Of a DNA stretch of 64,000 nucleotides, positions 7,429 through 48,570 are shown one piece after another. The translations under genes were made by a program, and so were the position numbers. The notes below the pieces were generated by a model that saw only the letters and a program-made list of their open reading frames with translations, ran no database searches and had not been told where the DNA came from. Location of the stretch: the NCBI GenBank assembly GCA_028820695.1, contig JAPPIB010000055.1, forward strand, positions 64,015 to 128,014, given 5' to 3'. The stretch is from Acidiferrobacterales bacterium. Lineage in GTDB: Bacteria; Pseudomonadota; Gammaproteobacteria; Arenicellales; JAJDZL01. How positions within the stretch are numbered: position 1 is the stretch's first letter; each line of letters begins with the position of its first letter.

Positions 7429-7431
7429 CCA

Positions 7432-8157
7432 GTGAAAGTTTGCACACGTCACATCTTGTGCGTCCTCGCCGTCTCATCGTTTTGGGCGCTCACCGGCTGT
7501 GCGACACTTCAAACGCCGGTCGCCTGCAACGCACTGGATCCGGAAGAATACCAAGAGACGCATGATCCGCTCGAATCATTCAATCGCGACATGTTTGAGT
7601 TTAACGAGAGTACGGACAAAGCGATCTATCAACCTGTCGCCAGAACATACAAAGCAATAACACCCGATCCGGTGGAAACCAGTGTTTCCAGTTTTTACAG
7701 AAACCTCAAGGAACCGAGAAATATAGTCTCGTCCCTGTTGGCGGGAAGGACGGATATAACGGCCGAATCCAGCATACGATTCACAATGAATTCGACTCTG
7801 GGTTTGCTTGGCCTGATTGATCTGGCAGGTCATGCTGGAATTCCGTACAACGACTACGATTTTGGCCATATGCTAGGGGCCTGGGGAGTCGGTGAGGGTC
7901 CGTACGTTGTCTGGCCATTTACAGGTCCGAGCAATATGAGAGATACTGCCGGCTCTGCGATCCATCTGCAAGTGACCTATGTGGAAAAACGTATCAAGAA
8001 GTCAGAACATCAACTCTTTGTCCAAGTCGGTTCTGCGGTTGATAGCCGGGCCCGTCTGTTGCCATTCACCGAGCTGCTTGACCAGCAACCAGACCCGTAT
8101 CTGTTTGCCCGGGAAAGCTATCGGCAAGCCCGCCTGAACACGATCTGTAATCCTTAG
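7432..8157 (+). CDS. mlaA: Phospholipid-transport lipoprotein MlaA (VacJ)
   Basis: GTG start and lipobox ALTGC. DPLESFNRDMFEFNESTDKAIYQPVARTYKAITP and NLKEPRNIVSSLL match the conserved MlaA N-terminal blocks. Confidence 0.8.
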   Translation: MKVCTRHILCVLAVSSFWALTGCATLQTPVACNALDPEEYQETHDPLESFNRDMFEFNESTDKAIYQPVARTYKAITPDPVETSVSSFYRNLKEPRNIVSSLLAGRTDITAESSIRFTMNSTLGLLGLIDLAGHAGIPYNDYDFGHMLGAWGVGEGPYVVWPFTGPSNMRDTAGSAIHLQVTYVEKRIKKSEHQLFVQVGSAVDSRARLLPFTELLDQQPDPYLFARESYRQARLNTICNP

Positions 8158-8189
8158 GATTCCTCACTCTCCTTCGAACACCTTTGTGC

Positions 8190-9002
8190 ATGGCAACTTA
8201 TGCTGTCGGCGACATTCAGGGTCGCTACAACGATCTATTGCGTCTACTTGACCGCATCCGGTTTTCGCCTGAAAGCGATCGTCTGATCCTGCTTGGGGAC
8301 CTGGTCAATCGCGGCCCGAATTCCTTGGATGTGGTACGTTTTGCCATGTCCCATGCGTCCTCGGTCAGGACTGTGCTCGGCAACCACGACCTTTATCTGC
8401 TTGGCGTGCTGGAAAACATTGTCGAGGCGCGCGAACGCGATACCTTTACCGATGTACTTTCCGCACCTGACCGCGAGGAAATTCTTGCGTGGGTCTGCCG
8501 ACAGCCGTTGGTGATTGACGAACCGGAACTGAACATTCTTGCGGTACATGCCGGTGTTCATCCTTTCTGGACCCATGACGATATTCTGATGCACGCAAAA
8601 CAGGCCGAGCAGGTGATCGCCGGTTCCGGGCGCGCGGAATTTCTGATGCATATGCTTGGAAACAAGCCCCGTCGCTGGTCGGATACCCTGGCTGGCTGGG
8701 ACCGCATGCGTATCCTGGTCAACGTCTTCACCCGCATGCGATATGTGAAGCGAAACGGAAAACTTGACTTCAAGGAAGTTCGGACCCGAGGCAAGCAACA
8801 GAAAAACCTCGTACCGTGGTTTGAGTTTCCAGGACGAGTGAAAATCAGACCGACGATCGTATTTGGTCACTGGTCGACGCTTGGCGTCTATCAGCAGCCT
8901 GGAATCCTTGCCATGGATTCAGGTTGTTGCTGGGGACGTTGCCTGAGCGCGGCACGTCTGGATGGCGAGTCGTTTGCCATCACCCAGGTCGCCTGCAAGT
9001 AA
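8190..9002 (+). CDS. apaH: Bis(5'-nucleosyl)-tetraphosphatase, symmetrical
   Basis: MATYAVGDIQGRYNDL, LLGDLVNRGPNSLDV, GNHDLYLL, FTRMRY and FGHWSTL are collinear with E. coli ApaH. I chose the ATG at 8190 inside the TTG-initiated ORF. Confidence 0.9.
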   Translation: MATYAVGDIQGRYNDLLRLLDRIRFSPESDRLILLGDLVNRGPNSLDVVRFAMSHASSVRTVLGNHDLYLLGVLENIVEARERDTFTDVLSAPDREEILAWVCRQPLVIDEPELNILAVHAGVHPFWTHDDILMHAKQAEQVIAGSGRAEFLMHMLGNKPRRWSDTLAGWDRMRILVNVFTRMRYVKRNGKLDFKEVRTRGKQQKNLVPWFEFPGRVKIRPTIVFGHWSTLGVYQQPGILAMDSGCCWGRCLSAARLDGESFAITQVACK

Positions 9003-9107
9003 CCGGCTTGCCCTTGACCGGAACACGGAATACTCTGAAACTTGATCAACTGATCGAAAATTTACATCTTACAATTAATGGTTGAACAGCACCGAGTCAC
9101 GAATACC

Positions 9108-9485
9108 ATGACCGACGTCCACAAGATCGACATACAAGTCGAAACGCACTACATAGCCGAAAATTCCAAACCGGCAGAACATAACTTCTTGTTTGCCTAT
9201 GTCATTACAATCACCAACGCGGGAACCGTTGGCGTGCAGTTGATGACGCGACATTGGATCATTACCGACGGCAACGGTGAAGTGGAGCACGTTCGCGGAG
9301 ATGGAGTAGTCGGTGAGCAGCCTCATCTGTTGCCGGGACATGCCTTCGAATACACGAGTGGTGCCGTGCTGCAGACGCCGGTGGGGACGATGAAAGGAAG
9401 TTATCACATGGTCACCGATAAGGGCGAGAGCTTCGACGCGGAAATTCCGCAATTCGTGCTGTCCGCGCACAGCACCCTGCACTGA
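9108..9485 (+). CDS. apaG: ApaG (DUF525) protein
   Basis: FLFAYVITITNAGTVGVQLMTRHWIITDGNG..VRGDGVVGEQPHLLPG..YTSG matches ApaG throughout. Starting at MTDVHKIDI gives the usual ~125 aa. Confidence 0.85.
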   Translation: MTDVHKIDIQVETHYIAENSKPAEHNFLFAYVITITNAGTVGVQLMTRHWIITDGNGEVEHVRGDGVVGEQPHLLPGHAFEYTSGAVLQTPVGTMKGSYHMVTDKGESFDAEIPQFVLSAHSTLH

Positions 9486-9497
9486 CAGCGGGAAGGT

Positions 9498-11954
9498 TTA
9501 GATATCCAGATTCTGGACTGACAGTGCCTCGGTCTCGATGAACTCGCGTCTTGGAAGCACATCGTCGCCCATCAGCACCTCAAATGCCCTGTCTGTTCGC
9601 ATGGCGTCTTCGATCCTGACTTTCCGTAGCATACGCTCGCTGGTATCCATCGTAGTCTCTCGCAACTGATCTGCGTTCATTTCGCCGAGTCCCTTGTAGC
9701 GCTGGATGGAAATGCCGTCGCGTGCGTCATCAAGCAGCCAGTCGAGCGCTTTGGAAAAGCTCAAGTTACTGACAGACTTGCCGCCCTTGATGACTTCGAC
9801 CGTGCCTTGCGCATACTTGCTCAACTCTTGCTCGAGTCTGACAATCGACTTGAAGGCTTGTGATCGGATGAATTTGTCGTCAACCCTGAACTCAACTTTG
9901 TCGCCGAGATTCTCCTTGACGATTCGCAACCGGTAACGCTCATGCCCGTTCTTCCCGCCGTCCGACTCGACTTCAACTTCGTAGTGCGCATTGCCATTGA
10001 GTTCCTGCGCCAGATTTTCCCTTAATTCCCGCGCAACCGTATTCACGTAGGATTCATCTTCGAATCTTGCTGCGTCCAGCACTGATGTCTTGCTGATCAC
10101 ACTGAGAACATCGCTGTCAAGCGTTCGTTTCAGTGAATTGAAGGCGTTCCTGGCGGTGACATGAAGCTGACACAGCCGTTCCAGCGCATCGCCGGTCAGG
10201 GACTGTTGGTTCACGTCGTCTGCGCCGCTGAATCGGATTTCGCTGTCGTTGACCGCGACTTCCAGGATGTACCCGTTCAATTCCTGATCGTCGTTAAGGT
10301 ACTTTTCCGTCTTGCGGTATTTCGCCTTGTAAAGCGGTGGTTGGGCGATATACAGATGACCACCCTCGATCAGGGCGGGCATCTTGTTGTAAAAGAACGT
10401 GAGAAGCAAGGTGCGTATATGTGACCCGTCCACATCGGCATCCGTCATGATGATGATTCGGTGATAGCGCAATTTATCGATCTCAAAATCAGGCTGTACA
10501 CCTGTGCCCAATGCGGCAATCAGGGTCTGAATCTCATCGGAGCGCACAATCTTGTCAATCGAGGCTTTCTGGACATTCAGGATTTTCCCCTTCAATGGCA
10601 GAATCGCCTGGAACTTACGATCCCTGGCCTGTTTGGCCGAGCCGCCGGCGGATTCGCCCTCGACAAGGAACAGTTCGCTTTCAGCCGGATCCTTCTCCTG
10701 ACAGTCAGCCAGCTTTCCGGGCAGACTGGTCGACTCAAAGGCGCTCTTGCGGGCCATCGCCTTTTCCTTTTGCGATTTCTCCCGAATGGCTGCCGCGTTG
10801 TTGACCTTCTCGCCGATCAGTTTGGCGATTTTCGGATTCTCTTCCAGGTATTCGGCCAGTTTTTCCGATACGACTGACTGCACTGCACCCTCGACGTTCG
10901 AAGAAACCAGCTTGTCCTTGGTCTGGGAAGAGAACTTCGGATCGTGAAACTTGATCGACAGGATCGCGGTCAGGCCTTCCCGGGTATCTTCCCCGGTCAC
11001 CTTGACCTTCTTGCTGAGCCCGTGATTGTCCATGTATCCCCTGATGGTCCTGGTAACCGCGGTGCGGAATCCGGTGTTGTGGGTACCGCCGTCGCGCTGA
11101 TACACATTGTTGGTGTAGCAACGGATGTTCTCGTTGTAATATTGCTGACACCATTGCAGGGCAGCGCTGACCTGGACTCCATCCTTGTCATCGCTTACCG
11201 AAATCACCGTCTCGTTCAGCGGATGTCGCAAACGATTCATTTCCGAGACAAACTCAACGATACCGCCTTCGTGACACATGACCTGATGCTGGCCGTCACG
11301 TTCATCAATCAGTTCAATCTGTACGCCGGGATTCAGATACGACAGCTCCCTCAGCCGCTCGCGCAGAATATCGAATCGGAATTCGATATCTGAAAACACT
11401 TCGACAGAGGGCAGGAATCGGATTGTGGTGCCTGCAAGTTCGGTTTCACCGATCACTTTCAGCGGCTCCACCGGTACGCCGTCACGAAATTCCTGGAAGT
11501 GAATCTCGCCCTCGCGATGAATGGTCATGGACAGATACTCTGACAGTGCATTGACAACCGACACGCCGACACCGTGCAACCCGCCCGATGTATCGTAGGA
11601 GAGATCGTCAAATTTCGCACCGGCATGCAGGATCGTCATGATGATCGTGGCACCTGGCAAGTCTTCGCCATTCTCGCCCTCGCCCTCCATGATTCCGGTC
11701 GGAATTCCGCGGCCGTTATCAGATACTGAGACTGAGCCGTCGGCGTGCACGGTCGTAATGATCTGATCACAAAATCCCTGTGAGGCCTCGTCGATCGAAT
11801 TATCGACCACTTCCGTTACCATGTGGTGCAGGCCGGTACCGTCATCGGTATCCCCGATATACATGCCCGGCCGGGTGCGCACCGGTTCGAGCCCGCGCAG
11901 TACCTGGATCTTAGTGTGATCGTAGCTGTCGTTCAAAGGTTTGTCTGAAGTCAT
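9498..11954 (-). CDS. gyrB: DNA gyrase subunit B
   Basis: 818-aa ORF with YDHTKIQVLRGLEPVRTRPGMYIGDT, GLHHMV.EVVDNSIDE, the Toprim blocks ELFLVEGESAGGSAKQARDR and IMTDADVDGSHIRTLLLTFF, and the long gamma-type insertion. Confidence 0.97.
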   Translation of the reverse strand: MTSDKPLNDSYDHTKIQVLRGLEPVRTRPGMYIGDTDDGTGLHHMVTEVVDNSIDEASQGFCDQIITTVHADGSVSVSDNGRGIPTGIMEGEGENGEDLPGATIIMTILHAGAKFDDLSYDTSGGLHGVGVSVVNALSEYLSMTIHREGEIHFQEFRDGVPVEPLKVIGETELAGTTIRFLPSVEVFSDIEFRFDILRERLRELSYLNPGVQIELIDERDGQHQVMCHEGGIVEFVSEMNRLRHPLNETVISVSDDKDGVQVSAALQWCQQYYNENIRCYTNNVYQRDGGTHNTGFRTAVTRTIRGYMDNHGLSKKVKVTGEDTREGLTAILSIKFHDPKFSSQTKDKLVSSNVEGAVQSVVSEKLAEYLEENPKIAKLIGEKVNNAAAIREKSQKEKAMARKSAFESTSLPGKLADCQEKDPAESELFLVEGESAGGSAKQARDRKFQAILPLKGKILNVQKASIDKIVRSDEIQTLIAALGTGVQPDFEIDKLRYHRIIIMTDADVDGSHIRTLLLTFFYNKMPALIEGGHLYIAQPPLYKAKYRKTEKYLNDDQELNGYILEVAVNDSEIRFSGADDVNQQSLTGDALERLCQLHVTARNAFNSLKRTLDSDVLSVISKTSVLDAARFEDESYVNTVARELRENLAQELNGNAHYEVEVESDGGKNGHERYRLRIVKENLGDKVEFRVDDKFIRSQAFKSIVRLEQELSKYAQGTVEVIKGGKSVSNLSFSKALDWLLDDARDGISIQRYKGLGEMNADQLRETTMDTSERMLRKVRIEDAMRTDRAFEVLMGDDVLPRREFIETEALSVQNLDI

Positions 11955-12042
11955 CTGGACAGAAACTGATATATTCTAAATATGCATCGGCCTTCGGCTG
12001 GATCGTCGGCCGGATGGGCTGGCCAAAACCAAGCTCTCGGTC

Positions 12043-13233
12043 TTAGCGATCCTTCAACAGCATCACAAGAAAACTTGAGGACTCATTTCCCGGAAATTTG
12101 AGCAGGCATGCTGACTGGGCGTTTTTCAGGTTGAACTCGACTTTGTCGTATTCTTTCATGACCTCGAAAATGTCCAGCAGATACTTGCCGTTGACCTGAA
12201 ACAACAGGGCTTCCCCGTGCTGTTCAATGCCCAGCAGTTCATCGATCTCAGCTTGTGAATTTCGGGATGACTGGGCATGAAGTCTCAAGGTGCCGTCCTC
12301 AACTTTCATGGTTGCCGGCACCTCCGGTCCCAGAATCCCGACAACTCTGCGAAGCGACGCAGTTATGCTTTCCCGGGTGACCTGGAACACACGCGATAGA
12401 TTCGCCGGAATCACACCCCGCCAGTCCGGATAGGTTCCTTCCAGAAGTTTCGAGGTGAACGTGATGTTCGGTGTGCCCGCCCGGACGTGGTTTTCGTTGA
12501 ACTGCAATGTAATCGGCGAGGAAAAGTCGCCGAGCAGCTTGCTCAGGTCCAACACGGTTTTTCGAGGCACAATGGCGCGGTGTGTGCTTTCGTTCAGTCC
12601 GGTCACCACTTCAGTGTGGCACACGGCCATTCTATGGCCATCTGTAGCCACCGTCCGCAACTCGGAATCGGTCATCTCGAAAAGCATTGCGTTGAGGTAG
12701 TAACGCAAATCCTGCGATCCCATCGCGTGCTGGGCGCGCTGTACAATGGTCATCAGGTCGGACCGACTGATCTGAAAGCTGATGTCCCAATTGCCTGTGT
12801 CCAGGATCGGAAACGGGCCGACTGATGAATCCTGCATCATAGTCTGCAGGCTCAGATGGCTGCGACGGCTCTCCACGTCGGAACTTTCAGCGGCTTCGGA
12901 TTCAGAACCGGTAGCGTCGTCCAGCTTGTTGATGTTCACCATCCCGTCTGAAAACTCAAACTTCAATCTGCAGCCTTTCGGTTGCTGCCGACAGAATTCC
13001 TGCACGGTCAGTCCGAGAAAAGCGACTTTTCCGGACTCGGTCACCTCTACATCGCGTACGTGCTCACTGATCTCGATCTCAATATTGGAACCCGTCAGCT
13101 GGAACCCGTTTTTATCTTCATCAACAGTCAGTAGAATATTGGCAATAATCGGAATGGTGGGGTTGCGATCAACAACGGTGTTGACTCGGGTCAGCGGATT
13201 GAGAATCTGATCTCGTTCAACAATAAAGTGCAT
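12043..13233 (-). CDS. dnaN: DNA polymerase III beta sliding clamp
   Basis: MHFIVERDQILNPL...PIIANILL, RYYLNAMLFE, ATDGHRMA and LLEGTYPDW are collinear with DnaN. At 396 aa it carries an acidic loop insertion (see findings). Confidence 0.93.
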   Translation of the reverse strand: MHFIVERDQILNPLTRVNTVVDRNPTIPIIANILLTVDEDKNGFQLTGSNIEIEISEHVRDVEVTESGKVAFLGLTVQEFCRQQPKGCRLKFEFSDGMVNINKLDDATGSESEAAESSDVESRRSHLSLQTMMQDSSVGPFPILDTGNWDISFQISRSDLMTIVQRAQHAMGSQDLRYYLNAMLFEMTDSELRTVATDGHRMAVCHTEVVTGLNESTHRAIVPRKTVLDLSKLLGDFSSPITLQFNENHVRAGTPNITFTSKLLEGTYPDWRGVIPANLSRVFQVTRESITASLRRVVGILGPEVPATMKVEDGTLRLHAQSSRNSQAEIDELLGIEQHGEALLFQVNGKYLLDIFEVMKEYDKVEFNLKNAQSACLLKFPGNESSSFLVMLLKDR

Positions 13234-13271
13234 AAAACTTCTAAAGGAATTAATTATGTTTTTGTTAGGCT

Positions 13272-13434
13272 TGTGTATAAGCGGAACAAGTGAAACTCAG
13301 CCAACACAATCATACAGTTAGGTCGACTGATGCCTGTTCAGAACTTTCTGAAAAAAGGTTGGGAAAATGTGTATCGACAAACCTGTTTTTCGGTTTTTGA
13401 AGAACCTCGAAAACTTATGCACACATTATACACT
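13272..13434. promoter_or_regulatory. Cluster of DnaA-box-like 9-mers in the dnaA-dnaN intergenic region (candidate oriC part or dnaN control region)
   Basis: Against the consensus TTATCCACA I see four 9-mers. TGTGTATAA at 13272-13280 (reverse complement TTATACACA) scores 8/9. TGTGTATCG at 13368-13376 scores 6/9. TTATGCACA at 13415-13423 scores 8/9. TTATACACT at 13426-13434 scores 7/9. The surrounding 252-bp spacer is AT-rich. Confidence 0.45.
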
Positions 13435-13485
13435 GAAATACGTACAGACCGCTGTCAAAAAAATCGTCGATGGTGGCTGAACAGG

Positions 13486-14856
13486 TCAGGACGACAGGAT
13501 GTCTTTCAGGGTGTTGAACTCGGTCTTGAATTCGCTGTCTTTCTCCAGCAGGGTGTCGATTTTCTTGCTTGCGTGAACCACTGTTGTGTGGTTCTTGCCG
13601 CCGATCTCCCTGGCAATTCGGGGAAGGCTGTGGGTTGTCAGGTTTCTCGACAGGACCATGGCGACATGCCGGGCCCGCGCAATGTTCGCCTTGCGGCTGT
13701 TTGAAAGAATGTCGTCCACCCGGATTCGGTAAAACCGGGCAACTTCCCGCACGATCGTCGGGATGTCGATGGGGCGAGCATTGAACTCGAGCATGTCATA
13801 AAGGACTTGCTTGACGACGGTGATGGTGATTCCCTTGTTGGTGAATCGGTGACTGGCGATCAGCTGGTTGAGTGCGCCTTCAAGTTCGCGCACACTGCCG
13901 TAAATCTTCTCGGCGACAAACCTTGACACTTCCGGATCCAGTTCCACGCCGCGTCTTTCGGCCTTGGATTCCAGGATGGCGATGCGGGTCTCGAGCTCCG
14001 GCGGCTTGACCCGGATCGCGATACCCTGTCCAAGCCTGGACTTGAGCCGGTCCTCCACACTCTGGATCTCCTTGAAAAACCGGTCGCTCGTGATGATGAT
14101 CTGCTTGTTTCCTTCCAGCAATGCGTTGAAGGTATGCAGGAATTCCTGCTGCGAGACATCCGCGCCGGCAAAGTGATGAATATCGTCAATCAGCAGGACA
14201 TCAAGATCGTGGTAGAAATTCTTGAACCGCTCAATGCTCTCGCTGTCCTTTCTTTTCATCAGTGTGACCAGATGACGCACAAAGTTGTTGGCCCGAACGT
14301 AGCGTGTCTGCTTGTCCGGGAATCGCCGCATCAGTTCGTGTCCGGCGGCCTGCATCAGATGTGTTTTTCCGTTCCCGACATCCCCATAGATGAAAAGCGG
14401 GTTGTGGTCACGCAGCCCCGGTTCCTCAGCTGCTCTTTGTGCCATGTATCGCGCCAGCTGATTGGACTCTCCCACCACGTGCTGGTCGAAGGTGTATTCT
14501 GCGGTAAGTTTTTCGAATCCAAACGGTTGTCTGTGGCTCGTTGCCGCCGTATGGCGGCTGCTTGAATTGGATTTACGACTGAACGAGTCTTTTTCGGCAA
14601 TGACCGCGGAATTTGACGCCATGCCGATCTTGACTGAAATATCGTACTTCTGGCCGGTGAGAAACTCAGCGATTTCGGCAATTTTCGGAAGGTAGTTTGA
14701 TTCGATTTTCCGTTTGGTAAAGCGGTTCGGTGCGTTCAGTACAAGGGAAGTGCCCGACTCTACCGCGCTCAGGGAGCGCAGCCAAGCCGTCACTTCGGCC
14801 TCATTGTGATCCTGCTCTAAACGAGAAAGAGTTTGTTTCCATAGAGTAGAAGGCAT
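13486..14856 (-). CDS. dnaA: Chromosomal replication initiator protein DnaA
   Basis: It has the N-terminus LWKQTLSRLE, AAA+ Walker A NPLFIYGDVGNGKTHL, Walker B LLIDDIHHF, sensor SVRELEGAL and the C-terminal DNA-binding block RHVAMVLSRNLT..SLPRIAREIGGKNHTTVVHA. Confidence 0.97.
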   Translation of the reverse strand: MPSTLWKQTLSRLEQDHNEAEVTAWLRSLSAVESGTSLVLNAPNRFTKRKIESNYLPKIAEIAEFLTGQKYDISVKIGMASNSAVIAEKDSFSRKSNSSSRHTAATSHRQPFGFEKLTAEYTFDQHVVGESNQLARYMAQRAAEEPGLRDHNPLFIYGDVGNGKTHLMQAAGHELMRRFPDKQTRYVRANNFVRHLVTLMKRKDSESIERFKNFYHDLDVLLIDDIHHFAGADVSQQEFLHTFNALLEGNKQIIITSDRFFKEIQSVEDRLKSRLGQGIAIRVKPPELETRIAILESKAERRGVELDPEVSRFVAEKIYGSVRELEGALNQLIASHRFTNKGITITVVKQVLYDMLEFNARPIDIPTIVREVARFYRIRVDDILSNSRKANIARARHVAMVLSRNLTTHSLPRIAREIGGKNHTTVVHASKKIDTLLEKDSEFKTEFNTLKDILSS

Positions 14857-18214: not shown

Positions 18215-19932
18215 TGGACTTTCGGCGTGCACTTTTGGCCATTTCGCTCGGGCTGATCCTGATGCTGATCTGGCAGGCGTGGCTGAATTTTCAGGACGAA
18301 AAGGCGCGGGTTGCGCAGGTTACCCAAACCGACGCGGCTCCGGGTGTTCCGACATCACCCTCCTCGACAGACCAGCCCCAGAGTGCCGCAACCGGTGAGG
18401 TTTCCGATGCGCCTGCCGTTCCATCCGCACCTTCGGCACCTGTACCGGCGGTTGGAGGTTCAGCCGAGAGTTCTGCGCTGGAATCAACACAACGGATCAA
18501 GATTCTGACTGATCTCCTGAAAGTTGAGATTGATACCTATGGCGGTGAGATACGGGAAGCGAAGCTGCCCGAATACCCAGTTGAGGTTGATATGCCGGAT
18601 GTGCCGTTCAGGTTGCTGACGGATACCGGTCCCGGAATCCTGGTTGCGCAGTCAGGCCTGGTCGGAACGGGTGGTGCATTTCCAAATCACAAGACAGAAT
18701 TTACCGCCGAGGCGCAGTCCTATGTACTGTCTGATTCGGACAGTTCGCTTGAGGTGCCATTGCGCTGGACATCTCCTGAAGGCGTCAACTATTTGAAAAC
18801 CTTCACATTCTATCGGGACAGCTATCTCATTGATGTTGAATTCACCGTCGACAACCAAAGCGGAAGTCGATTGGAAGCCTATCAATATGGACAATATCTG
18901 AGCACCGAGTATGTCGAGGAGTCCGAGGGATTCCTGTTTTTCAAGGCTTTGCCAAGCTACAAGGGAGCGGCGCTTTATACGCCTGAGAACAAATACGATA
19001 AGATCGACTACAAGGAAATTCGAAATGACAGTCCGGCGTTTGAGACGGAATCCGGATGGGTGGCAATGCTGCAGCATTACTTCATGACCGCGTGGCTGCC
19101 TTACGAAAACGCACCATATGAGTTCTATACCAGGCCGCTTCGTGATGCCAGCGGAGAGACACGCTATCTCGCCGGCTACGTCGCCCGAACCCCGACTGTA
19201 GTCGAGAACAACTCGGTCGCATCACTGCGAACCCAGATTTATGTGGGGCCAAAGGAGCAGGACCGGATCAAGGATCCCTCAGAAGGTCTGATCCTGACGG
19301 TAGATTATGGCTGGCTGACGCCAGTATCCTCGCCTCTATTCTGGGTGTTGCAGAAAATCAATGATGTCGTGAAAAACTGGGGATGGTCAATCATTCTTCT
19401 GACACTGTTGGTGAAAATTGTGTTCTATCCGCTGTCGGCTGCCAGTTACAAGTCGATGGCCAAAATGAAAAAACTTCAGCCGAGGCTCAAGACCCTGAAG
19501 GAGCGATATGGTGATGACAAGCAGAAACTGAATCAGGAGATGATGCAGATCTATAAGAAAGATAAGATCAATCCGCTCGGTGGCTGTCTTCCAATATTGA
19601 TTCAAATACCTGTTTTCATTGCGCTTTACTGGGTCTTGCTTGAGAGTGTCGAGTTGCGCCAGGCGCCGTTCATCTTCTGGCTTAACGACCTGTCTCGAGC
19701 CGATCCGTTCTACGTGTTGCCGGTATTGATGGGCGCATCAATGTTTGCACAGCAATTTCTGAATCCAACTCCATTGGACTCGCTGCAGAAAAACATCATG
19801 ATGAGCCTGCCGATCGTGTTTACATTTTTCTTCTTGTGGTTCCCGTCCGGCCTTGTGCTCTACTGGCTCGTCAATAATGTACTCTCAATTGCGCAGCAGT
19901 GGTACATCACCAAAAAGTTGGCGGCGATCTGA
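18211..19932 (+). CDS. yidC: Membrane protein insertase YidC
   Basis: 573 aa with an N-terminal TM, a large periplasmic domain and the conserved C-terminal core [52 protein letters not shown]. Confidence 0.95.
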
Positions 19933-21278
19933 TTGCTGAAGCCGATACCATAGCGGCGATATCAACCCCTGCCGGGATCGGTGGCATTGGAATCATCCGG
20001 GTTTCGGGGCCGAAGGCATCCGATCTGGCGCGTGCCGTAACACGCCGGGACGTGGTTGCGCGACAGGCGATATTCAGTGGATTCTTTAGCGACAATGGCA
20101 GCCTGATCGACGAGGGCGTTTTACTTTTCTTTCCTGCGCCTGGCTCCTACACCGGCGAAGACGTATGTGAATTCCAATGCCACGGAAGTCCGGTTGTGCT
20201 CAATGTGCTTGTGTCGAGGCTGCAGGAACTGGGCGCAAGACTGGCGGACCCGGGAGAATATACCCGCCGGGCATTTCTGAATGGCAAGCTGGATCTGGCT
20301 CAGGCCGAAGCGGTGGTTGATCTGATCAATAGCTCGACCGCGGTCGCTGCGCAATCTGCCATGCGCTCCCTGAGCGGGGAGTTTTCCGAACGGGCACACC
20401 GGATTGTGGAGAAAATCGTCAATCTGAGGATGTTCATCGAGGCGGCAATCGATTTCCCGGAAGAGGAGATTGATTTCCTGGCGAATTCCGATATTGCCGC
20501 GTCAATCAGTCAGATCCACCAGGACCTGACCGACCTGATCGACCGGTCAACCGCGGGCAATCTGTTGCGCGAGGGGATTACGGTTGTGATAGCAGGCCGC
20601 CCTAATGCTGGAAAATCAAGTCTTTTCAACCGGTTGGCACTGCAGGAACGGGCTATTGTAACGCCACAGCCCGGAACTACCCGCGATACGGTCGATGTGA
20701 CTGTCGATGTGAGCGGACTGGCGGTACGGCTGGTTGATACAGCGGGTTTGCGTGATGTTTCCGACGCGATTGAAAAGGAGGGGATCTCGCGTGCCAGGCA
20801 GGCGATGCAGTCGGCGGACATCGTGCTTTACGTGATCGACAGCGAGCAGGGGGCGAATGATGAGGACTTGAAGGAGATCGGGAAATTGGACCGCGCGCAT
20901 TGCGCCGTTGTATGGAACAAGACAGACCTGATCGGGGATGTTCGCCCGGCGATCGAGTCGGAATCGTGCCTACAGGTCCATGTTTCCGCGTTAACTGGCT
21001 TGGGTATGAAAAAAGTTTATAAAATAATAAAGCGGATTGCGGGCTATGAAGTGAATGAAGAAGGGCTTTTCCTCGCACGGCGACGACATCTTTCCGCAAT
21101 GAGACGTGCCAGTGAATTCGTTGCGCAGGCGCACGAAGCGCTCGCGCAACGGTCGGCAGGCGAGCTTGCAGCCCAGGATTTGTGGGATGCGATGAAGTCG
21201 CTCGACGAGATTACGCAAACACCTTCCTCGGATCAGTTGCTTGGCGAGATATTCGCAAATTTCTGCATCGGAAAGTAA
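19899..21278 (+). CDS. mnmE: tRNA modification GTPase MnmE (TrmE)
   Basis: It shows DTIAAISTPAG.GGIGIIRVSG, G1 GRPNAGKSSLFN, DTAGLR and the terminal FCIGK motif. GTG start with a 34-nt overlap with yidC. Confidence 0.93.
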   Translation: MVHHQKVGGDLIAEADTIAAISTPAGIGGIGIIRVSGPKASDLARAVTRRDVVARQAIFSGFFSDNGSLIDEGVLLFFPAPGSYTGEDVCEFQCHGSPVVLNVLVSRLQELGARLADPGEYTRRAFLNGKLDLAQAEAVVDLINSSTAVAAQSAMRSLSGEFSERAHRIVEKIVNLRMFIEAAIDFPEEEIDFLANSDIAASISQIHQDLTDLIDRSTAGNLLREGITVVIAGRPNAGKSSLFNRLALQERAIVTPQPGTTRDTVDVTVDVSGLAVRLVDTAGLRDVSDAIEKEGISRARQAMQSADIVLYVIDSEQGANDEDLKEIGKLDRAHCAVVWNKTDLIGDVRPAIESESCLQVHVSALTGLGMKKVYKIIKRIAGYEVNEEGLFLARRRHLSAMRRASEFVAQAHEALAQRSAGELAAQDLWDAMKSLDEITQTPSSDQLLGEIFANFCIGK

Positions 21279-21351: not shown

Positions 21352-22281
21352 ATGACGAATCTGAACAAATCCCAAGCGGTTCTTTTGCAGATGCTGATCG
21401 TGCTGGCGGCAGTCGCTTCGGTGATTATCTGGCAGTATGACTATCTGGCGGACCTTTATATTCGAAACCAGGTGACCCGAGTCGGTCTGATCGTCAATAT
21501 TTCGATCATGGCCCTTTTTGTTGCGGGTCTTTCGCAGTTGGTACGGCTGTTTCTTCTCTATGGTCGCGAGGAGAAAGCGCTCAAGCAGTTCAGCGACGCA
21601 GTTTCGTCGGAAGATGTGGAGCACCAACTCGATCAAATCCCTGAAGGCACCATCATCGGGCAACGCTACCGGATTGTGAGTGATTTTTTCAGTACCCGCA
21701 CGGAGTTCAATCACAACGCGCTGGCCGCAACATTGCTTGCTCAGGAGGCCAGCCGCACCAGTTTCGCCAAGTTTGTCAACAACATACTGATCCTGACAGG
21801 GGTTTTCGGCACGATCATATCGCTGACCGTGGCGCTTTTGGGTGCATCAACTGCGATTTCCGATGCCAACAGCCTGCGAGGTATCGATATTGTCATTCAC
21901 GGCATGTCGACAGCGCTGTCCACTACGATGACCGCAATCCTGGCCTATTTTCTGTTCGGCTACTTCTACCTGAAACTGCTTGACACCCAATCCTACGTGC
22001 TGGGGAAAATTGAACACATTACCGCTACAGTGCTGGTGCCGCGGTACCAGGCCGCGACTCGGTCACCCGAGCAGAATCTGAGTGCGATGCTCGCAGGCAC
22101 CGTTGAGACGATCAACAAGTTTGACACCTTCATTCGTCAAATTCAGGAAATCAGTGCCAAACAAGACGAGGTTTTTGCCAACTTTGAGAAGTTAACCGAC
22201 CAGAATATGCATCTGCTGACGGATATTCGCGGCATACTGCGTGCGGGATTCAGGTTGCGCGACGAGTCCGACAAGAACTGA
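21352..22281 (+). CDS. MotA/TolQ/ExbB-family proton-channel-like protein (4-TM MotA-type layout) with a ~100-aa helical C-terminal tail
   Basis: There are two N-terminal TMs, a ~75-aa loop, then LILTGVFGTIISLTVALLG ... GMSTALSTTMTAILAYFLFGYFY. This matches the family signature (GLLGT..G ... AL.TT..GL..AIP) by eye. Confidence 0.62.
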   Translation: MTNLNKSQAVLLQMLIVLAAVASVIIWQYDYLADLYIRNQVTRVGLIVNISIMALFVAGLSQLVRLFLLYGREEKALKQFSDAVSSEDVEHQLDQIPEGTIIGQRYRIVSDFFSTRTEFNHNALAATLLAQEASRTSFAKFVNNILILTGVFGTIISLTVALLGASTAISDANSLRGIDIVIHGMSTALSTTMTAILAYFLFGYFYLKLLDTQSYVLGKIEHITATVLVPRYQAATRSPEQNLSAMLAGTVETINKFDTFIRQIQEISAKQDEVFANFEKLTDQNMHLLTDIRGILRAGFRLRDESDKN

Positions 22282-22293
22282 CCCCGGAGGGGG

Positions 22294-24342
22294 ATGGACA
22301 TGACCTGGAACACTGGCGGATTCGTTGACCTTCGCGTTCATCGGGCATCCGAGGCCAGTCACTCAGACGATAGCATCTGGCCGTCATTCACCGACATCAT
22401 GATGGTGATCGTGATGATCTTTCTGATGGCTTCAGTCATATTCATGCTGCGCAATGTTCAATTGGGCAAAGATCTGCAGTCATCTCTCTCGTCCGAGGGC
22501 GAAGCGCTCCAAGAGATCAGCTCTCTACGGGATAGAGCCGCCTATCTATCGGAAATCATTAGACAAACTGAGCAACGAGCGGTCGATTCAGAGCGTCTTC
22601 AGAAAGAAGCGAGCCTGCTGGCGGAACAGCGCGGTACCCGAATTGCCGAGCTTGAGTATGAGACAGCCGATCTTTACCGTACGCAGGCGCAGTTGAACCT
22701 GGAACTGGAAGATCTTGGCGCCGAGCTCACCGAATCCCGTGCATTGCGGACGCAGCTGACCGAACGAATCGCATCGATGAATTTGACTATCGCGGACCTG
22801 GAATCCGTGAGCGAGAGCAAGTCGCAGGCGCTGGCTGCTGTGCAGCAGGAGCTTGACGACAAGTTGGGCGAACTTCGGACCGTTCAGATGACCCTTGAGG
22901 AGACACTGATTGAGGTCACCAGTCTGAACGAATCACTGGAAAATCTGCGGATGGTTGAACTTGAGCAGCAACAGAGCATTGCCGAGCTGATTGAGACCCG
23001 GGTCTCACTGGAGTCACTGACCGGTTTGCAGGAATCACAAATAACACAACTGATTCAATTACATAATGAACTCGAACAACAGTCAGGACAGCAACAGACA
23101 CAGATTGCACAACTGACGCAGGAGCGAGACGAGCTGGGATTGCTGAGCGACGATCAGGCGGAACGCATCGCGACCCTGATTGATGACCGAAGCGCGCTTG
23201 AGGCGACGACACAGGAGCAATTGGTACAGATTACCGAGCAGGAGCGCAAGCGTATCGAGCTTGAGAAGCTTGTCGCAGTACAGAATGAGCACATTGAGCA
23301 GCTGAGCCGCACACAGGACGAGCTGGAAAGTCGCAGCACGGAACTTACATCGAATGTTGCGCGGCTGAATGCGACCATTGAGAATCTGGAATCTCTGCGC
23401 AGCGAACAGTTGCAACAGGTCGCACAATTGATCGCGACGCGAAAGCAGCTTGAGGAAGCGGGTCAGGAGCAAACGTCGCAGATTATTCAACTGACGCAAC
23501 AACGTACCGAACTGGAAAGACAGATTGACGATCTGAATACGAGAAATTCTGAGTACCAGCGCCAGCTTTCGGAGCTTAATCAAACACTTGGGAGCATTCG
23601 CACAGCGGAACGTGAATTGCGGGAGCAGTCAACTGCTCACGAGGAACAAATCGATACACAGCAAACCCAGATCGCGAGTCTGGAGCGTGACCTTTCGACC
23701 ATGTTTCAGGAAAGAACTGATCTTCAGAACCTGAGTCAGGCCCTGGAAACAGAGTTGTCATTTCTAAGACGCCGTCAATCCGACCAGGAAGCGCAGCTTG
23801 ACACATTGCGCTCCATAACCGATCGGCTGGGCACGGACATTGAGGGCAGACAGCGGCAGATCGATACATTGACAAGTCAGAGGGACGCCTTGCAATCTGA
23901 CCGACAGAAGTCGCAGGACGAACTTGAGGAACTGAAGCAAGCCTATCAGGAACGACTGAGCGAATTGGCCGAACTGGAGGTTGCATTTGCCGAAAGCAGC
24001 CAGGAAGCACGAAGTCTGAGATCGGACCTGGTCGAGCTTAAGGAAGAGGCGCAGCTGATGCTGCGTCCGGCGAGAAGCCCCGCGAACCGTTATATTGTCG
24101 ATGTGCGTTACACAAAAGATGATTCCGGCAATCAGATTCTTTCTTACAAGTTGCCGGACCAGACTGTGGCGACGTTTGTTGATCGGCAGCAATTGGATGA
24201 GATTCTGACCCGATTGAAGTCCGAGCGGCCGGAAGGGTTGTATACTCGCATTGTGTTTCCCCAGCAGGAACTCCTGACATTCGAAGAGGCCTGGGGATTT
24301 ACCCAGCAAATCCTTTCACAATATGACTATTATCACCAATAA
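22294..24342 (+). CDS. ExbD/TolR/MotB-like single-pass protein with a ~530-aa coiled coil inserted between the TM and the C-terminal ExbD-like domain
   Basis: The start lies 12 nt after the MotA-like ORF, behind GGAGGGGG. The TM IWPSFTDIMMVIVMIFLMASVIF carries Asp34 (22393-22395), as in ExbD/TolR. Residues ~60-590 are heptad-rich and Q/E/L-rich. The last ~85 aa (YIVDVRY...LYTRIVFPQQELLTFEEAWGFTQQIL) fit the ExbD/TolR periplasmic-domain pattern. Confidence 0.55.
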   Translation: MDMTWNTGGFVDLRVHRASEASHSDDSIWPSFTDIMMVIVMIFLMASVIFMLRNVQLGKDLQSSLSSEGEALQEISSLRDRAAYLSEIIRQTEQRAVDSERLQKEASLLAEQRGTRIAELEYETADLYRTQAQLNLELEDLGAELTESRALRTQLTERIASMNLTIADLESVSESKSQALAAVQQELDDKLGELRTVQMTLEETLIEVTSLNESLENLRMVELEQQQSIAELIETRVSLESLTGLQESQITQLIQLHNELEQQSGQQQTQIAQLTQERDELGLLSDDQAERIATLIDDRSALEATTQEQLVQITEQERKRIELEKLVAVQNEHIEQLSRTQDELESRSTELTSNVARLNATIENLESLRSEQLQQVAQLIATRKQLEEAGQEQTSQIIQLTQQRTELERQIDDLNTRNSEYQRQLSELNQTLGSIRTAERELREQSTAHEEQIDTQQTQIASLERDLSTMFQERTDLQNLSQALETELSFLRRRQSDQEAQLDTLRSITDRLGTDIEGRQRQIDTLTSQRDALQSDRQKSQDELEELKQAYQERLSELAELEVAFAESSQEARSLRSDLVELKEEAQLMLRPARSPANRYIVDVRYTKDDSGNQILSYKLPDQTVATFVDRQQLDEILTRLKSERPEGLYTRIVFPQQELLTFEEAWGFTQQILSQYDYYHQ

Positions 24343-24360
24343 TGCAACGGTAGCTGACGG

Positions 24361-26247
24361 ATGAGACATCCACAGGAATATGACGTTGTGGTGGTCGGCG
24401 GCGGTCATGCCGGGGTCGAGGCTGCAATGGCGGCCGCGCGCACCGGCAGTGAGACATTGTTGCTCACCCAGAGCATTGAGACCATCGGACAGATGTCGTG
24501 CAATCCCGCAATCGGCGGGATCGGCAAAGGACATATCGTACGCGAGATAGATGCTTTGGGCGGCGTCATGGCGAGAGCGATCGACAAAAGCGGCATACAG
24601 TTCAGGCGTCTGAATGTCAGAAAAGGCCCCGCGGTTCGGGCCACCCGCGCCCAAGCTGATCGCACACTGTACAAATCCGCGGTTCGGACCTTGCTGGAAC
24701 GACAAGACCGTCTCACCATCTTTCAACAAGAAGTGGAGGACCTTCTGGTTGAAGATGGCATGGTCCGGGGCGTATTGACGCGATTCGGCATCCGGATCAA
24801 GGCAAGTGCCGTCATACTGGCAACCGGCACTTTTCTCGGCGGTACCATTCATATCGGTCTTGAGAATCATAGTGGCGGACGCGCGGGCGATGCCGCTTCA
24901 AACCGGCTCTCGAAGCGGCTCAGACGGATGATGTTCCACGTGGAACGTCTCAAAACCGGCACACCGCCCCGAATTGACAGCAGGACCATTGACTACTCCA
25001 GGCTTGAGGTGCAAACCGGCGATGATCCATCATTGGTATTTTCGTTCATGGGCAGTTCCGATGAGCATCCTCGGCAGATCTCCTGCCACATCGCACGCAC
25101 CAATGAGCGTACTCACGACATCATTCGAGGCGCACTTGACCAGTCCGCCATGTACGGCGGAGCAATTGACTCGATTGGTCCAAGATATTGTCCGTCGGTG
25201 GAGGACAAGATTGTTCGATTTGCGGATCGTGCGTCACATCAGATATTTGTTGAGCCGGAAGGGCTGGACTCAATCGAGATCTATCCGAATGGCATATCCA
25301 CGAGTTTGCCGTTTGATGTTCAGTGCAGGTTCGTAAGGTCGATTGAGGGATTTGAAAATGCGACGCTGACACGTCCCGGCTATGCGATTGAGTACGATTT
25401 TCTTGACCCGACTGATCTCAAGCCGACTCTGGAGTCGAAGCTGATGCCCGGATTGTTTCTGGCCGGACAGATCAACGGAACCACCGGATACGAGGAGGCC
25501 GCTTGTCAGGGACTGATCGCGGGGCTGAATGCGTCGAGGACGGCGCAGTCCATGTTGCCCTGGTGGCCGGGTCGAGACGAGGCGTATATCGGTGTCCTGA
25601 TTGATGATCTGGTGACCAAGGGGGCCGATGAGCCTTATCGAATGTTCACGTCCAGGGCCGAACATCGACTGATTCTGCGCGAGGACAATGCGGATCTGCG
25701 ACTGACCGGAAAAGGCCGTGAGCTCGGACTCGTATGTGATGAGCGCTGGGCGAGGTTTACTGAAAAACGCAATGCACTGTCACGTGAGCGCGACCGCTTG
25801 CAGCAACATACGGTCACACCATCCAAGACCAATCAGAAAGCGATCTATGAGGCATTGGGGCGGAACCTGACGGCCGATTCGACTTTGTTCGATTTGCTGC
25901 GCGATAACAATGTCAGCTATGAATCTGTGATGAGAATTCCAGGCACCGGTACGCCTGTCGAAGATCAGACGATCACTGAACAACTTGAAATCGAGGCACG
26001 TTACGAAGGATACATCGATCGACAGCGATCCGCGATTAACAGGGCCTCGCATGCACAAGGCATACGACTGCCCGATTCGATGGACTACACTCAGGTGCAC
26101 GGATTATCCAATGAGGTCCGACAGAAACTGCAGTCAAAAAGACCCGACAATCTCGGTATGGCTTCGCGGATACCCGGTGTGACACCGGCCGCAATCGCCG
26201 CTCTTTCCGTACATCTGAAAAAGCAGGCGATGTTGAAGTCTGCCTGA
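24361..26247 (+). CDS. mnmG: tRNA uridine 5-carboxymethylaminomethyl modification enzyme MnmG (GidA)
   Basis: [45 protein letters not shown] and RPGYAIEYD match full-length GidA (628 aa). Confidence 0.96.
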
Positions 26248-27753: not shown

Positions 27754-28619
27754 GCAGTCAGGAAAGATTAGGCCAGGGCTTGAGTGCGTTGCTTGGGTCG
27801 GCCGCGACGAAAGCGACGACAGCTCCGATTGATCATGTGAGCATGATCGCGATTGAAAAGCTGCACTCAGGTGCCTATCAGCCGCGTATGGAAATAGAAG
27901 ACGAGCCGTTGCGACAGCTGGCCGACTCAATCAGGGCCCATGGCATCATTCAGCCAATTCTCGCGCGCGAGTCGGACAGCGGCACTGGATTTGAGATCAT
28001 TGCCGGAGAACGAAGATGGCGGGCGGCGCAGATGGCGGGTCTGCACGAAGTGCCGGTCATTGTCCGTACGCTGAACGATCAGTCGAGTATGGCGATGGCA
28101 CTGATTGAAAACATTCAGAGGGAGGACCTGAACCCGGTTGAAGAGGCGAACATGATCAGAAGACTGGTTGAGGAGTTCAATCTCTCGCACGCTCAGGTCG
28201 GTGAGAATGTCGGCAAGTCGCGAGCCACCATCACCAATATACTGAGACTATTGTCATTGGCTGAACCTGTGTTGGAAATGCTTCAAAACCGTCAGATTGA
28301 GACGGGTCACGCCAAAGTCCTGCTTGCGCTTGCCAAGACCGATCAGATTGAGGCGGCACGGGTTGTCGTGCAAAATGCCCTGAATGTGCGAAAAACAGAG
28401 GATTTGGTCAAACGCTGGGGCGAACGCGGGCGCAAGTCGGGTAAAATAGCGAAACCCAAGGATTCCGACATTTCCAGGCTTGAGCGAGAATTGTCAGAAA
28501 AAGTTGGAGCGAAAGCCGATATTCATGATCGGAATGGAAAAGGATACATCAGGATTCACTACGGAAATCTTGATGAGCTTGACGGGATACTTGAACGAAT
28601 GAATCTGAACATCGAGTGA
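27750..28619 (+). CDS. parB: Chromosome partitioning protein ParB (Spo0J)
   Basis: [43 protein letters not shown] and [17 protein letters not shown] are the ParB boxes. It has an ATGA overlap with parA. Confidence 0.93.
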
Positions 28620-28657
28620 AGGCACAAACAGTTATGGAAACCGTCACAAAGTCACAG

Positions 28658-29767
28658 ATGAACCACGTTGCCAAACTGACTGTGGTCATTTTCTCAGCAC
28701 TGGTCATCACCGGTTGCGCGGAATTTGGTGGTAAACAACTGTCGTTGCTGCAGTCGTCCCGAGTGTTGGACCCGCTGGAAGTTCCACCGGGCCTGTCCCC
28801 CCTCCCGGAAGCTGAGCAGTTCCAGATTCCCGGTGAGTACAATCCGGCTGAACTTGCTCCCGAGGATCTTTCTCCAGAACAGTTCAGAAACTATGGGACG
28901 TGGGTTGAATTCGAGAAATTCCAGGAGTTTCAAAGAGCGGACAAGGGTATTGGTGTTGACGCGGATCAGTATCGCGAGGCCGTCGAACGCGGCGAGGACT
29001 TCTTCAAGGTAACGGTGATTGATACCGGAGAGAACGCGATACGATTGCGGGTGGTCGATTCAGCACAGGCCGTGTTTGAGCGGATGAAGGTTGCGCTCCA
29101 CAACATGGATGTCAAGGTGAACAGTGCCGATGAGGAAATCGGTAAATTCGTTGTTTCCGGGGTTGATATCAAGAAGTTGCCCACCCTGCTGCAGCGAATA
29201 GGATTCAAGGAATACAAAGGAAGAATCGATGAGTTGCACGTAGTAACGACGAGTGCCACCGAGACGCAGGTGGTCGCCAAGACTGAGTTCAACGTCGAGG
29301 TGAATGCCGAGGGCAGCAAGGAATTCCTGACCCGACTCAGGTACTATCTGCTTACGAGCTATCAGCAGGATGAGTCCGGCACAGCACTGGCGAGCGCGGT
29401 TTCCAATAAATCGATTACAGTGATCGAAGGACGGCAGACCATTGTAATTTCAGAGAATTTTGATTCGGCTTGGGTACGGGTTGGACGAACGCTGGAAGCT
29501 TCAGGTGTAAACATCGATGATCTGGATCGAAGCCAGGGTCTATATCTCGTCAGCTTCAGCCATCTGGAAAAAGACAAAAAGAAAAGATGGCGACTCGCAT
29601 TTTGGAGAAAAGACAAAAAAGAAGTAGCACAGAAGCATTTCAGGGTACTGGTCACCGACCATGGATCCCAGACAAGAATTCATGTTGAGGGCTCCGGGGA
29701 CGACGAGTCGGATGATCAATACGGCGAACAGTTGTTGGGGATCATTTACGAACGCTTGCTAACCTGA
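28658..29767 (+). CDS. BamC (NlpB)-like outer-membrane lipoprotein
   Basis: It has the lipobox VITGC, LDPLEVPPGLSPL, and FDSAWVRVGRTLEASGVNIDDLDRSQGLYLVSF resembling the BamC helix-grip domains. The start (28616, 28634 or 28658) is uncertain, and the family call is by eye. Confidence 0.45.
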   Translation: MNHVAKLTVVIFSALVITGCAEFGGKQLSLLQSSRVLDPLEVPPGLSPLPEAEQFQIPGEYNPAELAPEDLSPEQFRNYGTWVEFEKFQEFQRADKGIGVDADQYREAVERGEDFFKVTVIDTGENAIRLRVVDSAQAVFERMKVALHNMDVKVNSADEEIGKFVVSGVDIKKLPTLLQRIGFKEYKGRIDELHVVTTSATETQVVAKTEFNVEVNAEGSKEFLTRLRYYLLTSYQQDESGTALASAVSNKSITVIEGRQTIVISENFDSAWVRVGRTLEASGVNIDDLDRSQGLYLVSFSHLEKDKKKRWRLAFWRKDKKEVAQKHFRVLVTDHGSQTRIHVEGSGDDESDDQYGEQLLGIIYERLLT

Positions 29768-48569: not shown

Positions 48570-48570
48570 T

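Follow-up and report, generated by a model that had tools for sequence, protein, structure and literature searches.

To our knowledge, ion-driven 5:2 motors are the only known route by which the energy of the inner membrane reaches the Gram-negative envelope or a rotor. The uses of such architectures include flagella, the Ton and Tol systems, gliding and type IX secretion, and Zorya. The present work deals with two adjacent genes, here called g1 and g2, that are located between mnmE and mnmG in a 64,000-nucleotide stretch of the metagenome-assembled genome of a gammaproteobacterium, an Acidiferrobacterales bacterium (GenBank assembly GCA_028820695.1, contig JAPPIB010000055.1, positions 64,015 to 128,014 of the forward strand; this whole stretch is referred to below as the window, and coordinates are counted from its first nucleotide). 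In a first-pass annotation, made from the sequence alone, these genes had been described as a pair of MotA-like and ExbD-like subunits. The reading toward which we lean, if only modestly, is that g1 and g2 make up an uncharacterized ion-driven 5:2 proton motor of the superfamily to which MotAB, ExbBD, TolQR, ZorAB, and GldLM belong, in which the B-subunit dimer would itself be a rigid periplasmic shaft. The features of the pair are as follows.

21352-22281, + strand: g1, open reading frame (ORF) with an ATG start, 309 amino acids
21778-21966, + strand: channel region of g1 between the third and fourth transmembrane helices (TM3-TM4), approximately residues 143-205, with GVFGTIISL and GMSTALSTTMTAI; placed by alignment columns and the Pfam match at residues 122-210
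22066-22257, + strand: cytoplasmic tail helix of g1, residues 239-299, ending in L296-x-x-G299-F300-R301-L302; model pLDDT of 65-74, invariant columns
22294-24342, + strand: g2, ORF with an ATG start, 682 amino acids; the true start is probably the ATG at 22300
22378-22449, + strand: transmembrane (transpore) helix of g2, WPSFTDIMMVIVMIFLMASVIFML, with Asp34 at 22393-22395; placed by PADLOC ZorB1, PDB entry 8vvn_B and conserved columns
22450-24063, + strand: stalk of g2, residues 53-590, proline-free, with a heptad period; its 538 residues leave a remainder of 6 on division by 7
24064-24339, + strand: head of g2, residues 591-682 (92 residues, from RPARS to YDYYHQ), a small α/β domain in the AlphaFold2 model

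Described motors and their likeness to the pair

The TolQ-TolR(-TolA) and ExbB-ExbD(-TonB) systems share with the pair the fold of the A subunit (the g1 model has its best TM-score with TolQ and its best E-value with ExbB), a B subunit with an Asp-bearing transpore helix, and the strand and helix order of TolR, which recurs in the head of g2; in addition, the periplasm-length helical element of g2 resembles domain II of TolA. The differences are that g1 has four transmembrane helices, whereas TolQ and ExbB have three, that no TolA/TonB transducer lies beside the pair in the annotated contexts, and that the long helix belongs to the B subunit. No linked genes for TonB/TolA, TolB/Pal, or TonB-dependent receptors were found in these contexts, which cover adjacent genes only. 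Without a linked transducer, the pair does not qualify as a Ton or Tol system of the standard type. Nor is it a flagellar stator of the MotAB/PomAB type, since g2 has no OmpA domain and the cytoplasmic insert of g1 is small. Neither Pfam nor NCBIfam detected an OmpA-family domain in g2, whose C-terminal fold is different, and no flagellar genes were found in any annotated context. The absence of an OmpA-like domain, of a TonB/TolA partner, and of flagellar genes had already been remarked upon in the first-pass annotation.

The best sequence-level matches of both subunits are to ZorA-ZorB, which is also similar to the pair in having an A subunit with four transmembrane helices and a C-terminal helical tail and in having one subunit with a very long coiled coil. 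In Zorya, however, this coiled coil is part of the A subunit and is located in the cytoplasm, whereas in the pair it is part of the B subunit and is putatively periplasmic. Also unlike Zorya, the B subunit has no OmpA-like domain, the tail of g1 does not exceed ~100 residues, and the pair is found without effectors and outside any mobile or defense-island context; with the NCBIfam model antiphage_ZorA_4, whose cutoff is 500 bits, g1 reaches 8.4. Lacking a long ZorA tail, effectors, and mobile context, the pair is not Zorya. Of all the explanations considered here, a role as a Zorya-like sensor in antiphage defense appears the most improbable. It would agree with the weak PADLOC matches to ZorA (E = 4e-4) and ZorB1 (E = 1e-7) and with the presence of ZorAB structures among the best fold matches, but the annotated contexts contain no genes for ZorC, ZorD, ZorE-like, or other effectors, a g1 search of 72,556 plasmid and 50,697 phage records returned no match, the housekeeping position of the pair is fixed across lineages with a g1 identity of only 40%, and it is the other subunit that bears the long coiled coil, the long ZorA-type tail being absent. 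The defense-system reading was rejected for want of effectors and mobility.

Conceptually, the systems nearest to the pair are GldLM and TPH-vWA. In GldL-GldM/PorL-PorM, a B-like dimer also extends as a long periplasmic shaft, but the GldM shaft consists of globular domains, not of a coiled coil, and there is no detectable sequence relationship; furthermore, the pair, which occurs mainly in Gammaproteobacteria and also in some Zetaproteobacteria, shows no linkage to genes for type IX secretion. The PRK09039-type "peptidoglycan-binding proteins," whose layout we take to be a MotB-like transmembrane helix, a coiled coil, and an OmpA domain, resemble g2 in the order of transmembrane helix, coiled coil, and C-terminal globular domain. 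The respective models, NF006542 and NF006543, match g2 weakly (E = 0.002 and 0.047), with scores far below the cutoff, and g2 differs from these proteins in having no OmpA domain. For the TPH-vWA proteins, which were proposed in 2025 together with a TolQ-like partner, rotation inside the pentamer was put forward as the means of force transduction (PMC12204202). Similarly to g2, these proteins have an Asp-bearing B-type transpore helix joined directly to an effector part in the periplasm, and tolR/exbD does not occur as a gene of its own. Their difference from the pair is that g2 carries a 92-residue TolR-like head on a heptad rod and not a VWA domain (Pfam has no VWA match on g2) and that there is a single B gene, not a heterologous pair. 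No description of the g1-g2 pair was found in the literature searched, and the word "coiled" is absent from a 2025 survey of MotAB relatives (PMC12505986).

Predicted structures of g1 and g2

The AlphaFold2 model of g1, built on 55 homologues from protein databases (mean pLDDT of 80), consists of helices at residues 6-27, 29-38, 43-85, 101-115, 121-170, 175-236, and 239-299, which make up four transmembrane helices and a cytoplasmic helical C-terminal tail, with a small cytoplasmic insert (approximately residues 66-140) formed by short helices. When this model was compared with PDB using Foldseek, the top 50 matches were all to ExbB, TolQ, ZorA, or MotA, with probabilities of 0.99 to 1.00. The best E-value was 1e-3 (ExbB, 6tyi) and the best target-normalized TM-score 0.71 (TolQ, 8vlw_A); ZorA gave the longest structural alignments (262 to 308 columns, tail included), and MotA structures scored below those of ExbB, TolQ, and ZorA. 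As modeled, g1 has the fold of the MotA/ExbB/TolQ superfamily. The MotA-like layout with four transmembrane helices, a channel signature, and a helical tail, initially read from the sequence, is therefore borne out by the fold matches and by the tail helix at residues 239-299, and the quoted motifs, GVFGTIISL and STALSTTMTAILAYFLF, are indeed present.

At the sequence level, g1 scores 21.0 bits with the Pfam family PF01618 (MotA_ExbB; E = 3e-4, residues 122-210), just under the gathering score of 22.9, and precomputed PF01618 matches exist for the g1 orthologues P0061, P0063, and P0067. PADLOC gave a weak match of g1 to ZorA2 (E = 4e-4). Direct searches of PDB with the g1 and g2 sequences returned noise, except for a weak ZorB-like match at the N terminus of g2, and in the family profile comparison with PDB sequences the g1 tail yielded coiled-coil-like matches. 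In the 55-sequence alignment, residues G150, G153, T154, T191, and T192 are invariant, as is the C-terminal tip of the tail, L296-x-x-GFRL; the threonines are presumably equivalent to the threonine ring of ExbB/TolQ. The same residues bear on the idea that the pair is a degenerate, non-motor membrane pair serving as a passive coiled-coil tether, an explanation that we regard as very unlikely. That g1 is just under the Pfam threshold and that sequence-level matches to PDB are missing would both fit such a tether, but the g2 Asp and the five g1 residues listed above remain invariant in more than 300 clusters, down to 40% identity.

The B-subunit character of g2 is seen at its N terminus, where SFTDIMMVIVMIFL, with Asp34, is found. 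PADLOC ZorB1 matches residues 17-104 of g2 (E = 1e-7), and the g2 family profile matches the PDB entry 8vvn_B ("MotB-related protein"; E = 2.5e-6). The segment WPSFTDIM(M/T)V(I/V)VMIFL, including the channel Asp, is at least 90% conserved across the g2 alignment (alignment A3), and the WPSFTDIM motif was present in 79 of the 79 g2 proteins scanned. The Asp is located at the N-terminal end of the helix and is paired by hhalign with D23 of TolR, without statistical significance. Its numbering depends on the start codon: of the two candidate ATG codons, at 22294 and 22300, the second is the better match for the GGAGG sequence at 22286-22290, and the N termini of the orthologues read MTWNTGGF. Because of this ribosome-binding site spacing and these N termini, the real start is probably at 22300, which would give a protein of 680 amino acids with the channel Asp at residue 32. 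Of the initial proposal of Asp34 in an ExbD/TolR-type helix, the near-invariant Asp and its helix are upheld by the ZorB/MotB matches, and only the residue number probably changes.

Matches to ExbD itself are sparse. PF02472 (ExbD) does not match g2 of the window, and the TolR model TIGR02801 gives E = 0.23; ExbD is found at E < 0.1 in 4 of 42 g2 members, with P0129 reaching 28.5 bits (gathering score, 25.4) in the transmembrane-proximal region only. An SMC/Rad50/myosin identity of g2 was rejected, as such matches cover only the stalk, are far below the cutoff (e.g., 53 versus 567 bits), and reflect a composition effect; short forms of g2 are automatically named "chromosome segregation ATPase" in the source databases. 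A generic SMC-like protein, which the first-pass annotation had named as the outcome that would overturn its interpretation, is contradicted by the ZorB match, the near-invariant Asp, and the constant position of g2 after a MotA-like gene. The other such outcome, an assignment of the genes to unrelated families, did not occur either, given the superfamily fold of g1 and the ZorB/MotB matches of g2.

The first ~20 residues of the stalk (LRNVQLGKDL..., with the pattern LRN.EL..L; columns 51-68 of A3) are its best-conserved part, and this stretch immediately following the membrane may be a plug or a bearing. On the other side of the membrane helix, the conserved GFVDLR sequence in the N-terminal region of g2 (22318-22335) and the LRxGFRL tip of g1 (GFRL at 22246-22257) are alike in motif shape. 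These two segments could touch each other or compete for a single site, and together they suggest an additional cytoplasmic contact.

The ~530 residues of coiled coil noted at the outset correspond to the 538-residue stalk. A scan of 522 of its residues encountered no proline, and its hydrophobicity has a dominant period of 3.5 residues, with 24 times the mean power; a single dominant heptad frame extends over residues 123-227 and 323-581, with 3-residue shifts either way in between. Across the loci, the total length of g2 varies from 278 to 1261 amino acids. Stalk lengths were compared in 96 cluster representatives that had been retrieved by the head alone, which avoids a length bias. The median stalk has 202 residues (interquartile range, 174 to 278), the commonest lengths are 174, 181, 188, 195, and 202 residues, and only 4 of the 22,736 stalk residues are prolines. 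Divided by 7, the stalk length leaves a remainder of 6 in 69 of these 96 proteins and a remainder of 3 in 20 (binomial p = 4e-37, a value inflated by relatedness). The genome loci provided 42 distinct stalk lengths (139 to 1119), of which 24 have the remainder 6 and 10 have the remainder 3; in the closest relatives of the window, stalks of 468, 482, 699, 783, 811, 825, 965, and 1119 residues have the remainder 6, as does the 538-residue stalk of the window itself.

Long orthologues contain tandem repeats of 77 residues (loci L029 and L004), 42 residues (L002), and 35 residues (L045), that is, of 11, 6, and 5 heptads, and in the L012 lineage the repeat unit has 81 residues. Since the repeat units differ between lineages, the rod has been lengthened by duplication repeatedly and independently. 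It is also kept continuous, and the head consequently retains its angular phase relative to the transmembrane helix or is shifted by one stutter. The standard value for a coiled coil is 0.1485 nm per residue, and the Gram-negative periplasm is ~20 to 30 nm wide. Typical stalks of 174 to 202 residues would thus measure 26 to 30 nm, about the width of the periplasm; at the same rise, the rod of the window would be ~80 nm long and the longest one (1119 residues) ~166 nm.

The head of g2 recurs in 324 clusters (50% identity), in each case at the very C terminus of a protein with the g2-type architecture. Pfam has no family that matches these last 92 residues. In the AlphaFold2 model, the core (pLDDT of 82 to 93) has the order β-β-β-α-β-α, and the best TM-score in Foldseek, 0.51, is to the periplasmic domain of E. 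coli TolR (5by4; root mean square deviation of 4.2 Å, probability of 0.90, E = 0.14), nothing in PDB being matched at E < 1e-3. The term "TolR-like head" is accordingly used here for a structural resemblance of the model, not for demonstrated membership: the order of the elements and the TM-score agree with the ExbD-like C-terminal domain that had been proposed, whereas the E-value is not significant and the profile searches are negative.

This resemblance lends itself to a different interpretation, according to which the head would fix the B dimer to peptidoglycan as a stator, the g1 pentamer would rotate, LRxGFRL would drive or signal to a cytoplasmic partner, as in a miniature Zorya or flagellar stator, and the rod would be a spacer. 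TolR binds peptidoglycan. This property and the standing of TolR as the best structural match of the head speak for such an anchored stator, as do the invariant tip of the g1 tail and the fact that the longest structural alignments of g1, tail included, are to ZorA. A passive spacer, however, would need neither a heptad-quantized length nor one of 26 to 166 nm, as the distance from the inner membrane to peptidoglycan is much shorter; the annotated contexts contain no conserved gene for a cytoplasmic partner, and the g1 tail has at most ~100 residues. Anchoring of this kind therefore seems unlikely.

Distribution and genomic neighborhoods

The g1 family comprises 2818 database relatives, all of them unnamed; the entry identical to g1 is "hypothetical protein OXI60_11135" [Acidiferrobacterales bacterium]. 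The pair was found in at least 583 species (counting one genome per species), mostly marine Gammaproteobacteria and some Zetaproteobacteria. Among the matches listed, the hosts include Arenicellales-type bacteria, Sedimenticola, Candidatus Thiodiazotropha, symbionts of tubeworms and clams, a SUP05-type bacterium, and Zetaproteobacteria, and the genomes closest to the window carry the Arenicellales label. In each of the 78 loci whose available sequence was long enough, g2 comes after g1, mostly with gaps of 0 to 58 nucleotides, and both the N-terminal and the C-terminal parts of g2 are conserved. Given the 2818 matches and this invariable gene order, g1 and g2 are judged to be genuine genes, not chance ORFs.

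The location between mnmE and mnmG is shared by about half of the family. Both genes flank the pair in 39 of 80 loci; mnmG is found 0 to 31 nucleotides downstream, without mnmE, in 5, mnmE alone, at a contig end, in 2, and neither of them in 34. The pair thus sits beside mnmE or mnmG in only 46 of the 80 loci, not in all of them. The position persists at a g1 identity of only 40% (also in locus L084) and looks ancient in part of the Gammaproteobacteria, not family-wide. A functional tie to mnmE/mnmG or parAB as a property of the whole family was rejected on account of the 34 loci that have neither gene. Other neighbors vary by lineage and include glycerate kinase, Slp, a response regulator with GGDEF, SurA-like, DsbD_2, and MlaC proteins; no conserved third gene was seen in the annotated contexts. 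In three Arenicellales-type loci, L030 to L032, g2 and mnmG are separated by ~4.2 to 4.5 kb, a stretch that in L030, the locus with listed ORFs, holds three minus-strand ORFs, so the mnmE-mnmG interval evidently takes other insertions as well.

These neighborhoods are relevant to the proposal of a cytoplasmic rod, in which g2, through the opposite topology or re-entry, would provide a ruler or scaffold possibly tied to the nearby chromosome and division functions. Its appeal is that the 70- to 166-nm stalks of the clade that includes the window are a misfit for the periplasm, that the positive-inside rule is uninformative for g2, that the pair adjoins mnmG-rsmG-parA-parB in 44 of the 80 loci, and that short forms bear the name "chromosome segregation ATPase." Against this, the Asp of g2 is at the N-terminal end of its helix, as in B subunits that have the N terminus inside, the commonest stalk length equals the width of the periplasm, and 34 of the 80 loci are nowhere near the genes of the replication origin. 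The database name is a coiled-coil artifact, as an ATPase domain is absent and the matches to SMC proteins are confined to the stalk and far below the cutoff. A cytoplasmic location of the rod is accordingly considered quite unlikely.

In the window, the immediate surroundings of the pair are as follows.

19899-21278, + strand: mnmE, upstream neighbor (context only); NCBIfam NF003661, 426 bits against a cutoff of 380
24315-24343, + strand: promoter-like site TTCACA-17-AATAAT, a pattern match only (consensus scan, 10 of 12 positions)
24361-26247, + strand: mnmG, downstream neighbor (context only); NCBIfam TIGR00136, 872 bits

Here g1 and g2 are on the same strand as both neighbors, with gaps of exactly 73, 12, and 18 nucleotides, just as in the first-pass annotation. 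Because none of the three intergenic gaps (mnmE-g1, g1-g2, and g2-mnmG) contains a + strand terminator-like site, co-transcription of mnmE-g1-g2-mnmG is plausible as a prediction; the promoter-like site at the 3' end of g2 could allow independent expression of mnmG. Upstream of the pair are ORFs for rpmH, rnpA, and yidD, and NCBIfam also assigns RsmG, ParA, ParB, and YidC among the neighbors in the window. Over positions 1-14000 of the window, the cumulative GC skew has its minimum at ~10 to 12 kb and rises thereafter, which probably places the replication origin immediately before the rpmH-rnpA-yidD-yidC block, at a distance of ~10 kb from g1 and g2. A 383-amino-acid ORF at 28616-29767 overlaps the parB stop codon and has a lipoprotein-like signal, LVITGC; no NCBIfam family matches it at E ≤ 1e-5.

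The window carries a second motor module (42898-51339), which had originally been grouped with the pair, through its 48.5- to 51.3-kb portion, into a single family of long-stalk stators. In addition to an unassigned 412-amino-acid protein in its upstream part, it encodes the following.

44207-46294: TPR protein, upstream in the module
46281-48296: PEGA and FGE-sulfatase protein, upstream in the module
48571-49326: TolQ/ExbB-like gene (PF01618, 54 bits)
49340-50404: protein that has a VWA-type region (VWA_2, E = 1.8e-7) in addition to a transmembrane helix and a coiled coil
50350-51339: second protein of this layout, its VWA-type region recognized by a DxSxS motif read directly in the sequence, with no Pfam VWA match

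The helices of the two VWA-type proteins read LAFLDVM and LAFLDIV and are ExbD-like, with an Asp. This module matches the published TPH-vWA class (PMC12204202, section 8). Since the comparison of its A subunit with g1 yields a BLASTP E-value of only 0.14 and its B-type proteins have VWA heads, the two modules are related at the superfamily level only and do not form one family, contrary to the earlier grouping.

The proposed machine and its significance

In the proton-motor reading that we favor, five g1 subunits would form an inner-membrane ring around two g2 transmembrane helices, and proton flow via the g2 Asp and the g1 threonines would turn the ring relative to the g2 dimer. Unlike the B subunits of known motors, g2 does not finish with a short linker and a domain that binds peptidoglycan; its helix runs straight into an unbroken two-stranded coiled-coil rod, tipped by the small TolR-like α/β head. 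The dimer would be both the axle and the periplasmic shaft, uniting in one polypeptide the roles of TolR/ExbD and of TolA/TonB. The head would bind a target in the peptidoglycan or the outer membrane, to which the shaft would transmit torque or tension or else report envelope geometry. In the genome of the window and in its relatives of the Arenicellales type, rods of 465 to 1119 residues have arisen through tandem duplication of units that are multiples of a heptad. We infer the 5:2 stoichiometry, the rotation, and the placement of the rod in the periplasm, the last of these from homology.

Several observations weigh against this reading. The quantization of stalk lengths by 7 could be explained by selection for an unbroken coiled coil, without any mechanical role. 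The stalks of 465 to 1119 residues (~70 to 166 nm) in the Arenicellales-type clade of the window exceed a normal periplasm and are too long to stand perpendicular in it, so a simple spanning model does not fit them. The positive-inside rule does not orient g2 (on average, 1.6 Lys and Arg residues in the N-terminal flank versus 1.9 in the C-terminal flank); as these counts are uninformative, its topology is assigned by homology. For the head, the other listed structural matches have query-normalized TM-scores of at most 0.44, and many are RNase H-like, with the same order of elements; the head profile gave only chance matches to thioesterase among PDB sequences, and hhalign assigned a 0.6% probability to its relationship with enterobacterial TolR, in a comparison whose sensitivity is low owing to the shallow TolR alignment (at least 86% identity). 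The g1 family profile, too, found no ExbB or MotA among PDB sequences, and no partner or target of the pair was found in the annotated contexts.

A more far-reaching version of the motor reading is put forward tentatively, as a possibility that we ourselves consider less likely than not. [quoted passage not shown] If this is true, the lengthened shafts of the Arenicellales-type bacteria would imply a second use, e.g., as rods lying along the envelope or as a sensor of envelope geometry.

The family is unannotated and widespread in marine sulfur-oxidizing and symbiotic Gammaproteobacteria. Its mechanical signature is unusually clean: the rod is free of proline and differs up to eight-fold in length, almost only by whole heptads. 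A natural shaft built of whole heptads makes the long-standing question of rotation and torque in the B dimer directly testable, and cultured hosts, such as Sedimenticola selenatireducens DSM 17993, make genetics and tomography feasible. So far, each new 5:2 architecture has revealed a new use.

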